In this document: positions 42,001 through 46,658 of the stretch, in pieces
Numbering within the stretch: position 1 is the stretch's first letter
How the letters are laid out: every line of letters begins with the position of its first letter
DNA from: an uncultured bacterium
Lineage (GTDB): Bacteria; Desulfobacterota_D; UBA1144; Nemesobacterales; UBA2774
Assembly (NCBI GenBank): GCA_963705505.1
Contig: CAVPJU010000009.1
Coordinates: 1 to 46,658 of the forward strand
Direction: 5' to 3'
DNA length: 46,658 nt
Position numbers: made by a program

Positions 42001-45000
42001 TCATAACCTCCCTGTTCCTGAGCGCGGCTATGCCGAAGACGGAGTAGCGGTCTTTCCCGGCGGGGTCGACGGTCAGGGTCTTAAGCGTCCCCTCTCTCTC
42101 GTTCCCGATGCAGTTGAGAGCGCAGAACGCCCTTATCTCCTCGTCGAGTATCGTTTCCCTTATGACCTGGTTCTTGATGTCCTTCGCACGGAGCGCGCCC
42201 GGGTGTGAGATGAAGACCGCGCACAGGACGAGCGCGGCTGTGAAATATCTGCCGGTGTTGCGCATCGTTATAAGTGTAACCTGTACGCGCGCGGTTGAAA
42301 GGGGGAATTTTGGGAGGGGAGAGTGGATTTCCGATTTCTCGGGAATGATGCACATCATGTGTCATCGCGAGGGAGAGAATCGACCGTGGCGATCTCGCTT
42401 ATGTACTTAGATTGCCGCGCTTCGTTTCACTACGCTCGCAAGGACACAGAAAAGACAAAGAAAGGCAAATATATTTCTCTTCTTTGTCTTGATACAAAGA
42501 AGCAAAAATCACACACATAGTGTGGTCTTTCGAAAAGAGAGCACGGAATTGTGCTAAAAATATATTACTAATGCGAAAATCTTTTAATTCTGCCCTAATT
42601 AGTATCAAGGTTTAGTGAAACAAGACTCATGACATAATTGCATTTAGCGAGTGGCGTCCGATTTGTTTTGGCTTAAGTAGATTATCCGAAGAACATCAGC
42701 AAAGTGCATTCAGCTAAAGTCGTCCGATTGTGCGCTCGCTTACAATCGTTACTTGCTCGGAATCGTCCCGTAAAAGATTTTTGACGCATTACTAATATAT
42801 TTTCTTAACGCAAATTCTGTGAATGTCGGAAGGGAAAGACTTTCTTGATCGAGCAATAAAGTAAACCCCCCACCCAAACCCTCCCCCCTTATAATGGGGG
42901 AGGGAATTTTATGCGCGGGCGCTTGCCCGCCGCAAATTCTGTGAATGTCGGAAAGGAAAAAGGCATTCGGGAACGACAGGAATGATAATGTACCCCCTCA
43001 CCCTAATTTGGATTTAGAGAACAATGAGACTGGGGTTAATTAGCAGTGGTGACCTTACTGTAATGGCGTCCTATTTCTCCTGTTCATCGAAATAGTCCTC
43101 TCCCTCGCTGGGGAGAGGGGAAATATAGTATAAGGATGAGATTGCCGCGGCGGAAAGTTCGGGGGAAGTTTTTTCGCCTATTGTAATTTTAATCTAACGG
43201 CATTAATTTTAGGGTCAAGATTCTATTATTTAGAATCAAGATTACATTATAAGATTTAAAAATATTTTGTGCCTATCTCTGATTCGAGGGATTGTGAAAT
43301 CTTGAGATATACCATTAAAATTGTTCTATCTATACTCGTCGCGATTCTCTCGATCGGCGGCTGCGACGAAAGCAGCACGACGAACGAAGGCCCTCTGCCT
43401 AAAGACCCCAGCCGGTGGGTGTGTAAGAGCTCGCTTGTACCCCCTACTCAGGAGCAAATTGATGAATTTTGCAGTATGCATTCCGGCGCGGGGCGGGAAG
43501 CTCCGATAAACCTCCAGGACCCTCCTCCGTTGTCTGACCTCGACGCGAAGAATGAATACGACCTGGCATTCCAGGATTTTCTCATAGCCAGGGACTATGT
43601 GAACGAGCTTGAGTGGTCAGGCGATATGAACTGGAGATTGACGGGTCCTTATGTCGGAGAAATAGGAAAGGGTCAGAACTACGGCGTGCATCCCGCTGTC
43701 AGAATCTACTACTCTCCCGAGGTGCTGGAGTGGCTCTGTAACGGCAGAGAGGGCAGCATCCCCGACGGAGCTATGATTATAAAGGAGATGCACTCGATTA
43801 ACGATAAGCTCGGAATCACCCTCAATAGCGAGGGCTGTATGGTAATTAACAACGATGTCGAGCCACAGTCCTGGACTGTAATGGTCAAGCAAAGCGGCGC
43901 ATCATACGACGGCTGGTACTGGGCTTCCTATGCCGTCGTCCCCGATCCTCCCGATTCCGCATGGGAAATAGGAAACCCTCCGGTATTCGACGCCTCGGGC
44001 GTTACGGGAATGGGTTTCTTCGAGGATGGTTTAATACCGACAAAACCGAACCCGCTCTGGTATCCGACGGGCTATGTTTACTCGAGCACTAATAAAATTC
44101 CGGACGTGGTATATCCCTACAGCGAATACGGGAATAACTGCATAAACTGCCACGCTTCGGCAGCGACCGAATCGACATTTTCATCGCTCGACAATTTATT
44201 GACTCCGGGTATCGAGTATAAACAGTTTCCTTCTAAAGGGACTACCAGGTCTTTCCCCGCTGAGTTTCTCGCCGGCCCGCAGCCGGGGTTGATATCCCTG
44301 ATTGCGCGAGACTCCGAATCTATAGGCGCTACGGACGTTGCCAGCGGAGCACGGGACGAGGTCAACGGCTACGTATCGCCCTTTACGACCGCGCTCGAGG
44401 AGCCGGAAGCGGAGTTCCTGAATTTCTATAATCAGCTCGACGAGGTTTCCTTTACCGACGCGTGGTTTCTGCGTCTCCCCGCCGAGACCTACGATCACAT
44501 AGTGTCGGCTTCGACAAGCCCGGGGCAGTTTATCACGTCGGACCAGTGTATCGGATGCCATGACGCCACTTACCTGAACGCTGCACAACCCAATATGATA
44601 CTCGAGCAGGATGTGAGCGGCGGGACGCAGCTTGTTAATCTTTCCCAGTACAGCGAATGGAGGGCGTCGCCCATGGGGCTTGCGGGCCGCGACCCTATCT
44701 TTTTCTCGCAGCTCCAGAGTGAAACGAACAACCTGCCTCAATACACGACGTGCGTGGAGAGCACGTGCCTTCATTGCCACGGCGTCATGGGACAGCGCCA
44801 GTTAGCCATAGATACTCCCGGCCAGGACACGGAGGACTGCAACAGCTTGTTCGCCGTAGCCCCGCCGGCCGGAGTGCCGTCCGGAAAGCCGTTCAGTCTC
44901 GATATGGTGACGCAGTGGCCCGATTCCGAGCAGAACGAGTTTCAGGAATACGGGGCGCTTGCCAGGGACGGTATCTCCTGTACGGTCTGCCATCATATGT

Positions 45001-46658
45001 CTGACGTCGATCTGGGTAATGAAGAAACTTTCACCGGGAATTTTGTTACGGGTCCTCCCGACGAAGTCTACGGACCATATATGGACGACACGATAGTTCC
45101 GAAACCGATGCAGCACGCTCTGGGTATAACGCCCGTGTTCAAGGATTATTTTGTAAGCGGCGACGCGTCCAGCTCGGATACTTGCGGAAGCTGTCACAAC
45201 ATACTGCTCCCGGTTGTCACAAATCAGGGCGAGATAATCGGCGCGAGTTACGAGCAGACCACTAATCTCGAATGGGTAAACAGCGACTTCGCTCCCGGCA
45301 AGCCGGGGTTCCTCTCATGCGCGGACTGCCATATGCCTACGACGTTCGACGGACAGCATCTGTCGTTTAAAATAGCCAATATCGAATCAAACGGGCTCCC
45401 GCCGACTACCGGGCGTCTGCCCGATCAGGATATAACGCTTACCGAGCGTGACGTATTCCCCAGACACTCGCTCCACGGTCTTAACCTTTTTATAAACCAG
45501 ATGTTCCAGCAGTTCCCGATCATCCTGGGCGCGCGTCAGATCGACTACATGACCGGAACGTCGACCGTTCCAGCTCTGATTACCGGAGCGAATTCCATGA
45601 TCGATATGGCGCAGAATCAAACGGCCGCTGTCGACGTTCAAACGCTCGAAGTCACCCCCGAGGGACAACTGAGAGCGGTGGTGAAGGTAACCAATAAAGC
45701 CGGTCATTTCCTGCCCTCGGGCGTAAGCTTCAGACGGGTGTTTATCGAGTTCCTGGTACGCGACGCGGAAGGGAACGTGCTCTGGGCCTCGGGACGGACG
45801 AACGAGCTGGGCGCCATAGTTAAAGGTACTACGGAAGAAGTCCTTCCGAGCGAAGAGCCGGTCGAGAACCCGGACGCCCCGTTCCAGCCTCACTACCAGA
45901 CTATCACCCGGGACGACGAGGTGCAGATATACCAGGAGCTTATCGAAGATTCGGAAGGCCATCTCACCACGAGCTTCCTGAGGCGCTTCGATACGGTCAA
46001 GGATAACCGCATCAGACCCAGGGGTTATAATCCGGCTTTCTTTCTGACATTCGACTCTCCTTACATTCAGGCCCTCGCCGAGACACACGGAGAGGCCGCG
46101 CAGGACCCTTATTACACCGACCCCGCACTTACGGGAGCGGACGTGATCGAATATTTGATACCGCTCGATGAGGCGACGCTCGGCAAGGTCCACGATATAA
46201 AGGTCACTCTTTATAACCAGTCCATACCGCCGTTTTATCTCCAGGAGCGTTTCAGTGATGCTAACCGCGGCGCGGGAGAGAAAGATGAGATAGAGCGTCT
46301 TCAATACCTGACGAGCCACCTGAATGTCGGCCAGGTAGCGGACAGCGATGGGAATAAGGTCTTGAAGGACTGGAAGCTGTTTATAACCAGCGCTACCGCC
46401 GCGCTTAAGTAGAGTTTTTCTACTTTTCCTGATACAAAGAAGCACACACACATAGTGTGGTTTATGGAAAGACGAATAAAAAGAAAGGCAAATATATTTC
46501 TCTTCTTTTCCTTGATGAAAAGAAGCAAAAATCATCCGACAGCACAGAATTCGCTAAAAATATCTTATTAAGGCTAAAATATTTCAATTCCACCCCAGCC
46601 CTGAAATATTTTCACGCCTTAATAATCTATTTTCTTCACGCAAATTCTGTGAATGTCG

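Follow-up and report, generated by a model that had tools for sequence, protein, structure and literature searches.

What might a haem of the cytochrome P460 type do when it shares one polypeptide with five further c-type haems? Characterised P460s are single-haem dimers with a separate electron acceptor, and the question is raised by a gene at positions 43302..46412 (+ strand, as for all features below) of a window comprising the whole stretch of DNA analysed, 46,658 nucleotides of contig CAVPJU010000009.1 from an uncultured bacterium. The gene encodes an exported hexahaem cytochrome c of 1036 amino acids in which a cytochrome P460/c'-beta domain (residues 83-301) is joined to a pentahaem module (residues 406-1035), an architecture that a preliminary description of the locus had recognised and that is confirmed here. 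That description saw a P460-type redox site wired to a haem chain; the fold, the position of the lysine and the wiring are supported, whereas the picture of one redox site with a passive wire is not.

Results

An exported six-haem polypeptide

The open reading frame begins with TTG. An upstream GTG at 43269 would extend the product to 1047 amino acids, but the TTG is favoured because the GTG codon is missing from a second copy of the gene on another contig (C5); a promoter scan upstream of the start gave no convincing + strand site. Six CxxCH motifs begin at residues 280, 416, 489, 560, 628 and 673, and more than one such motif was found in none of 10,000 shuffles of the sequence. The six motifs had been described as common to the family, which agrees with their presence in 114 of 115 matches of 780-1250 amino acids and in 74 of 77 open reading frames at the family's loci, the other three having five. 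The structure model of the whole chain is of the quality previously claimed (pLDDT 89.9, pTM 0.91), with a low-confidence linker at residues 317-356 (44250..44369; pLDDT below 50).

The signal peptide (43302..43364) ends in I-G-G-C21, a sequence that we take to be lipobox-like, and is followed by Asp-Glu. A similar motif is found in 57 of 97 close relatives and in 24 of 117 proteins of the wider family, while 113 of the 117 have a hydrophobic N-terminus. Judged from these sequences, export is general in the family and lipidation is not; the lipoprotein-like signal noted earlier thus holds for this protein but not as a family rule.

The copy on C5 is 97.7% identical to the present one (contig C9) in amino acids and 96.6% in nucleotides, and pN/pS between the two is about 0.11. 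The overlap of the C5 and C9 ends resembles the C1/C10 and C2/C10 overlaps (96%), a pattern that supports the earlier suspicion of a single locus. The C5 copy is most likely a strain variant, and contig ends from variant strains were preferred to a true duplication in the host, which was rejected; real paralogue pairs are present in some relatives.

The N-terminal domain and its haem site

Several lines of evidence support assignment of residues 83-301 (43548..44204) to the P460/c'-beta fold, a five-stranded beta-sheet that is specific to this superfamily. The sub-cut-off match to Pfam Cytochrome_P460 was recovered over the same stretch (E 0.001; 19.9 bits, cut-off 27), and PF16694 is passed by relatives (P0025, 32.1; P0083, 37.6) and by full-length copies in genomes G093 and G094. 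A profile of the full family matched McP460 at E 4.8e-7, placing Lys161 on Lys78 and C280-H284 on the McP460 CxxCH, near the domain's C-terminus, and hhalign of the domain with P460/c'-beta gave probabilities of 98-98.7%. A narrower profile of the N-terminal domain (A2) found no P460 in the PDB, whereas the full-family profile did, and a single-sequence search of solved structures returned only the pentahaem cytochrome 5ZE8 (E 5e-4). As previously reported for Foldseek, 5ZE8 (E 1.6e-10) is followed by c'-beta and P460 chains (E 0.009-0.04). The best five fold matches of the domain among 48,161 chains are all P460/c'-beta (Z 5.5-7.8, rmsd 3.9-5.2, 122-127 aligned), the next match having Z 3.8. 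The domain's Z-scores are only 5.5-9.1, which, like the empty result of profile A2, counts against the reading preferred below. In a quick tree of 40 of 188 fusion domains the fusions form their own branch (support 99) relative to 23 stand-alone P460/c'-beta sequences.

The haem of this domain is bound by the CxxCH at residues 280-284 (44139..44153). Lys161 (43782..43784) occupies the place of the lysine that cross-links the haem in P460s, and in engineered c'-beta a lysine there suffices for a cross-link, which has been tied to oxidative chemistry (PMC11928373, PMC8042395). Lys161 and His130 had both been called invariant, which proved too strong: in an alignment of 188 members, a set filtered for six motifs, Lys161 is found in 183, with Ala in five, and His130 in 186. 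The five Ala members, all of them included in the quick tree, represent two changes, so that Lys161 was lost at least twice. They keep His130, Gln652 and the six haems, so that some members can evidently do without the cross-link.

The distal carboxylate of hydroxylamine-oxidising P460s (Glu96/97, Asp102) is replaced here by Thr192 (43875..43877), which aligns with McP460 Asp102; the position is Thr in 101, Ala in 64 and Glu in one of the 188 sequences. All characterised P460s lacking this carboxylate are inactive with hydroxylamine, and Gln, Asp or Leu does not rescue them (PMC11928373, PMC6457333). A carboxylate from elsewhere in the sequence, for example Asp108, might conceivably act as a substitute. 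His130 (43689..43691) falls on or beside the distal cap, the two alignments differing: a gapless register leaves it one residue short of or past the Phe cap, and hhalign superimposes it on the Arg/His cap. There it would be either a base or a sixth iron ligand; as a ligand it could close the site. We found no His variant at the P460 carboxylate site in the literature examined. Smith et al. ascribed the tuning of P460s towards other substrates to outer-sphere residues, and they noted an Asp and a His beside the substrate of HAO (PMC6457333).

Compared with the P460s of M. capsulatus (6HIU/9HRK), N. europaea (2JE3) and Nitrosomonas sp. AL212 (6AMG), the domain shares the beta-sheet fold (Z 5.5-8.0), the C-terminal CxxCH and the lysine, but it is docked to five more haems, lacks the carboxylate like the inactive NsP460, probably has His for the Phe/Arg cap and carries a long insertion before the CxxCH. 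Cytochromes c'-beta (7EAD, 8BRK, 6HIH, 7S5O) share the fold with a slightly better Z (up to 9.1) and likewise lack the carboxylate; they have Phe/Met where the fusion has Lys, and they lack its putative polar His cap and multihaem partner.

An altered pentahaem module

Residues 406-1035 (44517..46406) form a pentahaem module of the 5ZE8/ExtKL-MccSep/PtdA type, as indicated by fold (Z 19.0, rmsd 2.9 and 354 aligned against 5ZE8), by hhalign (99.96-100%) and by sub-threshold matches to NF040886 (15.2 bits for this protein, at best 42.5 among ten proteins with E down to 3e-11; cut-off 250). Module-profile matches to MccSep chains reached only E 0.9-1, and these chains are absent among the fold matches listed. 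The module shares with the Thermochromatium tepidum pentahaem c552 (5ZE8) and PtdA a helical five-haem cap, with motifs in register, and an Ig-like stem, here a beta-sandwich at residues 771-1036 (45612..46409); it differs in some 200 residues of insertions, in the added P460 domain and in loci that lack a surrounding ptd operon. Proteins of the 5ZE8/PtdA type have no assigned function (PMC11976967; Ptd preprint). All motifs are CxxCH and the CxxCK of NrfA is missing, although a few NrfAs do use CxxCH; NrfA gave weak local matches only (E 0.02-0.8).

The five motifs lie at residues 416-420 (haem 1, 44547..44561), 489-493 (haem 2, 44766..44780), 560-564 (haem 3, 44979..44993), 628-632 (haem 4, 45183..45197) and 673-677 (haem 5, 45318..45332). 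In MccSep, haem 1 is solvent-exposed and is the proposed point of electron entry, haem 2 is catalytic, and electrons are proposed to move from haem 1 through 3 and 4 to 2 (MccSep preprint). His722 (45465..45467) and His802, each conserved in all 188 members, would be distal haem ligands by analogy with the stand-alone pentahaems, and both are kept from the polysulfide reductase MccSep/ExtKL (9WT8/9WT9) along with the G-H-x-x-P-x-G loop. The four bis-His haems of those proteins are not expected here, as Met458 (44673..44675; 182/188) replaces the His of the S-x-H sequence and Met603 (45108..45110; 187/188) the His before haem 4. Met603 lies beside C419 in the modelled interface and is probably a ligand of haem 1.

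The second difference concerns haem 2. The Cys that ligates this haem in MccSep and 5ZE8-like proteins, part of a C-Q-T sequence in the latter, has given way to Glu651-Gln652-x-Thr654 (45252..45263; E 187, Q 188 and T 188 of 188); the Cys of L136 aligns with Q652, and the L137 Cys lies immediately ahead of it, within a gap of two residues. The position of selenocysteine 325 of MccSep, at the end of the stretch from His802 to Val808 (45705..45725) and aligned with the TGA codon of L137, is Val in 182, Ala in five and Thr in one of the 188, never Cys. With Gln652 and Val808 in the places of the Cys and Sec, and Met in those of two His ligands, haem 2 is a candidate for a second active site and may be more than a length of wire. 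A further potential ligand, Met432 (179/188), could close this haem.

In the structural model of docking, the CxxCH region of the P460 domain (277-298) packs against haem 1 (414-423) and Met603, with a score of 0.68 against 0.00 for the best of three controls; among reference pairs, 116 of the 157 solved ones and two of the 215 mismatched ones attain this mark, counts that hold only roughly here. At least 52% of contacts agreed between runs, with partner pLDDT of at least 62. The modelling supports wiring of the P460 haem to the module through haem 1. Haems with His/Met ligation are usually at higher potential. They would pull electrons from a P460 haem, for which potentials of -340 to -424 mV have been reported (PMC11928373).

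Distribution and genomic context

A search for the family at E<=1e-30 gave 517 clusters at 50% identity. Its 188 aligned members are 35-55% identical overall, and its carriers include ordinary soil and water bacteria, among them the cultured Marinicella marina, Tistlia consotensis, Bosea sp. LC85 and Thiorhodococcus drewsii. Among 32 genomes of the host's family 18 have it, three as partial matches, roughly the 17 reported before. The family had been called unnamed, which is nearly right: some partial members are automatically labelled 'cytochrome P460 family protein'. Among the best 150 matches, each of those with five haems only seems to be a fragment that has lost its N-terminal part, and seven inspected of 106 shorter matches to the N-terminal domain look like cut or frameshifted fusions. 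No stand-alone module was seen among the short matches of the family search, a scope that leaves aside Atlas clusters of 543-669 amino acids; a further search listed mainly full-length proteins closely related to the present one. The C-terminus of five members carries a membrane or sorting-like tail; such tails score weakly against IPTL-CTERM (E 0.19).

No conserved partner gene was found in 80 loci, nor any neighbour pointing to nitrogen or any conserved porin or quinol-oxidase partner. A conserved operon was rejected, as the largest neighbour clusters are generic (by our reading of the sequences, short-chain dehydrogenase-like and ABC ATPase-like proteins, among others) or reflect synteny among close relatives; neighbours bearing CxxCH occur at six of the 80 loci. 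In the host genome (93.6% complete) nirK was not found, and amoA gave no match, but the amoA control was silent too.

Discussion

A parallel in manner of working only is HAO, in which a cross-linked catalytic haem is wired to a haem chain; we take HAO to have an acidic residue beside its catalytic-position haem, as here. HAO has eight haems and a Tyr cross-link between the subunits of a trimer (PMC8042395), whereas the present protein has six motifs, no HAO fold and its cross-link candidate in an unrelated beta-sheet domain; PF13447 matches the host's own octahaem and not the hexahaem protein. The truncated-haemoglobin-pentahaem fusions of cable bacteria (lPHCtX), proposed as terminal oxidases, likewise join a ligand-binding haem domain to this pentahaem family, but as described they have gained a globin, where the present protein has a P460 fold (PMC11976967). 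We found no description of such an architecture or mechanism in the literature searched, which included few subscription papers, and the portion of a 2025 review that was covered does not mention a fused P460 form.

Our preferred reading, to which we tentatively assign a probability of about 40%, is that the exported protein is an oxidoreductase with all six haems on one chain, held by a lipid anchor in this clade, and that its role is the detoxification of hydroxylamine or NO-type nitrogen species. The substrate would bind at the P460-fold haem, presumably cross-linked by Lys161, with His130 standing in for the missing carboxylate as proton acceptor. Electrons would pass to module haem 1 (His/Met603), on to haems 3 and 4, and out to an external carrier or to haem 2, whose Glu651-Gln652 pocket would form a second ligand-binding site. 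Against this reading count the Thr or Ala at the carboxylate position, the repeated loss of Lys161, and the chance that His130 closes the P460-fold haem or Met432 haem 2. In a bolder version, which we consider rather improbable, the chain is a hydroxylamine dismutase that oxidises at the His-assisted P460 haem and reduces hydroxylamine (or NO) to ammonium in the haem-2 pocket, electrons running along haems 1-3-4. Such a dismutase could work without a redox partner, in keeping with the absence of conserved neighbours and with the members anchored at the surface. A more modest version, in which substrate binds at each of the two end haems, is plausible at somewhat short of even odds.

Gln652 is conserved more strictly than Lys161 (188 against 183 of 188), as would suit a reductase of NO, hydroxylamine, nitrite or a sulfur oxyanion in which haem 2 is the only active site, with Glu651/Gln652 and nearby invariant residues that include Arg463 and Arg812, and in which the P460-fold haem, closed by His130, serves as a built-in point of entry and supplies haem 1 as the donor does in MccSep. 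The missing P460 carboxylate, the modelled docking at haem 1, the catalytic haem 2 of MccSep with its proposed path, and the reduction of nitrite, NO and hydroxylamine by HAOs without the cross-link (PMC8042395) all agree with this. Such a reductase leaves retention of Lys161 in 183 of 188 members at 35-55% identity unexplained. His/Met haems on the path would presumably tend to trap electrons, and the 80 loci have no dedicated donor gene; we regard this alternative as doubtful while giving it some weight. If instead the pentahaem stored electrons and passed them to the P460-fold haem, the distal His, which we take to be typical of peroxidases, might activate H2O2, O2 or NO; five members without the Lys, and named hosts, many of which presumably belong to aerobic lineages of soil or sea, are in keeping with a peroxidase or an O2/NO reductase, as are the peroxidase-like activity of cross-link-free members of the P460 fold and the fusions of cable bacteria (PMC11976967). 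In NeP460, however, the Lys or its cross-link suppresses such activity, yet the Lys is kept in 183 of 188, and the invariant Glu-Gln at haem 2 finds no explanation; we think this unlikely.

That the protein is a non-catalytic electron store or wire in extracellular electron transfer or redox buffering, with all six haems six-coordinate, has only a slim chance of being right. With His130 and Met432 counted as ligands, the conserved His and Met residues would suffice for all six haems, five members have membrane or sorting-like tails, and a structural relationship of the module to nanowire cytochromes of archaea has been described (PMC11976967), but neither a porin nor a quinol-oxidase partner is conserved nearby, and near-invariant polar residues occupy two sites that serve catalysis in relatives. 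An MccSep-type reductase of polysulfide or sulfur compounds with an extra haem domain is most improbable: homology to ExtKL/MccSep is evident through NF040886, though far below its cut-off, but the essential Cys239 corresponds to Gln652 or Glu651 and Sec325 to Val808, neither site being Cys in any of the 188 members, and the MccSep variants C239H, U325A and U325C have lost activity (MccSep preprint).

The fusion family places a P460-fold haem on its own haem chain at no fewer than 581 confirmed loci in representative genomes of several phyla. By sequence comparison, neither end haem has a residue set that is known from a solved relative, one having Lys and His but no carboxylate and the other Glu-Gln for Cys/Sec. 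The family bears on the ability of a His to take over from the P460 carboxylate, on P460-type haems in non-nitrifiers and on a pentahaem scaffold without sulfur chemistry. If hydroxylamine or NO is turned over, these proteins would represent an uncounted route in the nitrogen cycling of soil and water, and if the dismutase proposal were true, an overlooked hydroxylamine sink and N2O source in hundreds of non-nitrifying species.

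Results

The six-haem protein is encoded at 43302-46412 on the forward strand of contig CAVPJU010000009.1 (C9), as 1036 residues from a TTG start; the second copy, on contig C5, lacks the alternative GTG start that lies 33 bases further upstream on C9. The preliminary description had counted six CxxCH motifs, and these were borne out, more than one motif occurring in 0 of 10,000 shuffled sequences. It had also taken the C5 copy for probably the same locus at overlapping contig ends, and we read this copy as a strain variant of one locus because its overlap with the C9 end (96.6%) resembles those of two other host contig pairs (96%). 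Between the copies, 61 codons differ synonymously and 24 non-synonymously (pN/pS ~0.11). The overlaps between contig ends C9/C5, C1/C10 and C2/C10 measure 1.2-3.5 kb at ~96% identity, suggesting that the assembly mixes strains. Dispersed intergenic repeats of ~60-290 bases and 81-95% identity lie at 42450-42960, at 46420-46658 and at many places on C5 and C9, and C9 terminates within one of them.

The lipoprotein-like signal reported for the protein is present, its N-terminus ending in the lipobox-like I-G-G-C21. A hydrophobic N-terminus is found in 113 of 117 family proteins and a lipobox-like motif in only 24 of 117, and five family proteins have C-terminal membrane or sorting-like tails. 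C-terminal membrane-plus-basic tails were seen in members P0018 (L013), P0022, P0028, P0046 and P0069, the first three of which additionally carry Cys-rich inserts and tails resembling, with a weak score, IPTL-CTERM. Six or more small proteins encoded at 29794-41577 of the window terminate in IPTL-CTERM-like sorting tails; three of them were scored.

The N-terminal domain (residues 83-301) has the P460/c'-beta fold, as had been proposed. The weak Pfam Cytochrome_P460 match of the query alone again scored under the Pfam cut-off; the family profile matched the stand-alone cytochrome McP460 at E 4.8e-7, profile-profile alignment of the domain to 23 stand-alone members gave 98-98.7%, and the five best matches of its model among 48,161 chains were superfamily representatives (Z 5.5-7.8; next 3.8). 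A narrower profile of the domain found no P460/c'-beta match, and we therefore regard the signal in the sequence as genuine, though faint.

Along the family-profile alignment, K161 corresponds to McP460 residue 78, the cross-linking lysine in Table 2 of PMC11928373, and T192 to Asp102, the catalytic carboxylate. K161 and H130 had been called invariant; of 188 distinct family members with six motifs, 183 have Lys and 5 have Ala at position 161, and 186 retain His130. At position 192, Thr is found in 101 of the 188, Ala in 64 and Glu in one, and with Thr or Ala instead of a carboxylate the pocket resembles that of the inactive NsP460 and differs from those of hydroxylamine-oxidising P460s. Whereas none of the solved superfamily members has His as cap, the query pocket has a candidate in His130, which a gapless register places one residue off the Phe cap and hhalign places on the Arg/His cap. 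A quick tree joins the fused domains in one branch (support 99) and implies at least two losses of Lys at the cross-link position.

In a stand-alone P460-like subfamily (L103-L107, L109), which forms a long branch (support 100), the capping position holds a conserved His within P-H-G. On the minus strand of host contig C6, 113156-113761 (L150:1657-2262) encodes an exported protein of 201 aa that matches P460 weakly (E 1e-4) and lacks CxxCH, possibly a haem-less P460-fold protein; most genomes of the host's genus contain similar short matches that end ahead of the haem motif.

The pentahaem module (residues 406-1035) belongs to the family of 5ZE8, ExtKL and PtdA. It superimposes on the solved pentahaem c552 5ZE8 with Z 19.0 and rmsd 2.9 over 354 residues, the ExtKL model matched weakly in all 10 family proteins tested, and alignment to L137, an ExtKL above cut-off, and to 29 further stand-alone pentahaems gave 99.96-100%. 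MccSep/ExtKL reduces polysulfide; four of its haems are bis-His, haem 2 has His/Cys239 ligation, Sec325 is present, and haem 1 is the proposed electron entry (10.1101/2025.11.18.688581). By every catalytic test for MccSep the module differs from it: Val808 is the aligned partner of the L137 Sec codon and Gln652 that of the Cys in the 5ZE8-like C-Q-T motif, while the only non-motif Cys of L137, taken to be the Cys239 equivalent, lies in a two-residue gap immediately ahead of Gln652. His722 and His802 are kept, and Met458 and Met603 occupy the places of the other two His ligands. With four distal ligands for five haems, haem 2 would stay open or weakly bound; Met432 (179/188), within a family-specific insertion, could be a fifth distal ligand.

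Glu651 is conserved in 187 of 188 members, and Gln652 and Thr654 in all 188. Presumably HAO Asp267-His268 and NrfA His264 sit at the same place as Glu651-Gln652; the His-to-Asn variant of NrfA reportedly retains hydroxylamine and NO reduction. At the haem-2 position stand-alone pentahaems vary between Cys, Met, Glu, Gln and Ile, which makes it probable that this position sets function. Glu, Gln or Met occurs there in L117, L119, L125, L132, L139, L142, L143, L145 and L081-L086. Three further pentahaems (L138, L144, L147), scoring below the ExtKL cut-off, combine an in-frame TGA where MccSep has its Sec with a Cys in the region of the haem-2 ligand, and we read them as further selenoprotein clades.

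The whole-chain model returned the same pTM of 0.91 as before. Modelled as two separate chains, residues 82-302 and 392-1036 docked with a score of 0.68 (best control 0.00), a level that 116 of 157 solved pairs and 2 of 215 mismatched ones attained, counts that are only approximate here because our own alignment and three haems were used. Contact agreement between runs was at least 52% and partner pLDDT at least 62. In the modelled interface, 277-298, with the motif of the P460 haem, faces 414-423 (haem 1 motif), 602-608 (Met603) and 692-711, which supports docking of the P460 domain at haem 1; no solved complex of the two folds was found. The earlier proposal of a P460 site wired to its own haem chain is thus favoured in its docking, and the haem-2 residues suggest that the module is more than a wire.

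The family is widespread, as previously stated, with 517 proteins at E<=1e-30 among 50%-identity representatives and at least 581 confirmed loci (581 of the 602 candidate stretches listed). The best 80 of these loci lie in Acidobacteriota, Alpha- and Gammaproteobacteria, Chloroflexota, Bacteroidetes, Planctomycetota, Verrucomicrobiae and Desulfobacterota. Matches occur in 20 of 120 genomes of the host's phylum and 18 of 32 of its family, and close named relatives are labelled Dadabacteria or Thermodesulfobacteriota, a group to which the host therefore probably belongs. Among relatives, G073 has a tandem pair of paralogues (C3:20386-26528), G077 a copy interrupted by two in-frame stops (C9:2270568-2273624), and four others two dispersed paralogues each.

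Clustering of 945 ORFs from the best 80 loci revealed no family-specific partner gene, and a second CxxCH protein is present at only 6 of the 80. The host genome (93.6% complete) has a nosZ-like gene (426 bits, below that model's cut-off) and, elsewhere, an HAO-like octahaem; nirK was not found in it, and amoA gave no match in a search whose control was equally silent. A multihaem cluster on contig C10 (527616-538104; L149) encodes a ten-haem MtrC-like lipoprotein-type protein, a NapC-like protein, seven- and four-haem cytochromes and an HAO-like octahaem with Asp-Tyr where Asp-His is usual.

Discussion

Of the two ends of the haem chain, the one at haem 1 would carry a P460-type haem and the one at haem 2 a Glu-Gln pocket. 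We favour substrate oxidation at the P460 haem, with a probability of roughly 40%, because the lysine is kept across 35-55% identity, because haem cross-links are associated with oxidative chemistry (PMC11928373, PMC8042395), and because Met ligands would improve the chain as acceptor. We take hydroxylamine or a related nitrogen species as the default substrate, since no other is known for the P460 cofactor. The chief argument against this reading is that no characterised P460 without the carboxylate has been active (PMC6457333), so either His130 must take that role or the substrate differs.

The conserved haem-2 pocket could instead be the site of a reductase, with the P460 haem as a closed entry haem, a tentative second choice. 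Somewhat less probable is a peroxidase or an O2/NO reductase, by analogy with the globin-pentahaem fusions of cable bacteria (PMC11976967). The boldest reading, which joins both ends, would give a partner-free hydroxylamine dismutase, which we consider doubtful; hydroxylamine dismutation is thermodynamically favourable. A pure wire fits poorly and is slightly more doubtful still, and an MccSep-type enzyme, given Val808 and Gln652 at the Sec and Cys positions, fits poorly too and is very improbable.

No description of a P460-pentahaem fusion was found in the literature searched, which mostly excludes subscription papers, and the words 'fused', 'fusion' and 'domain' are absent from the accessible text of the 2025 P460 review. 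The P460/c'-beta superfamily and the 5ZE8/ExtKL/PtdA pentahaem family were already known; what appears to be new is the fusion of the two, on a pentahaem scaffold that, judged from its residues, seems to host many candidate active-site types.
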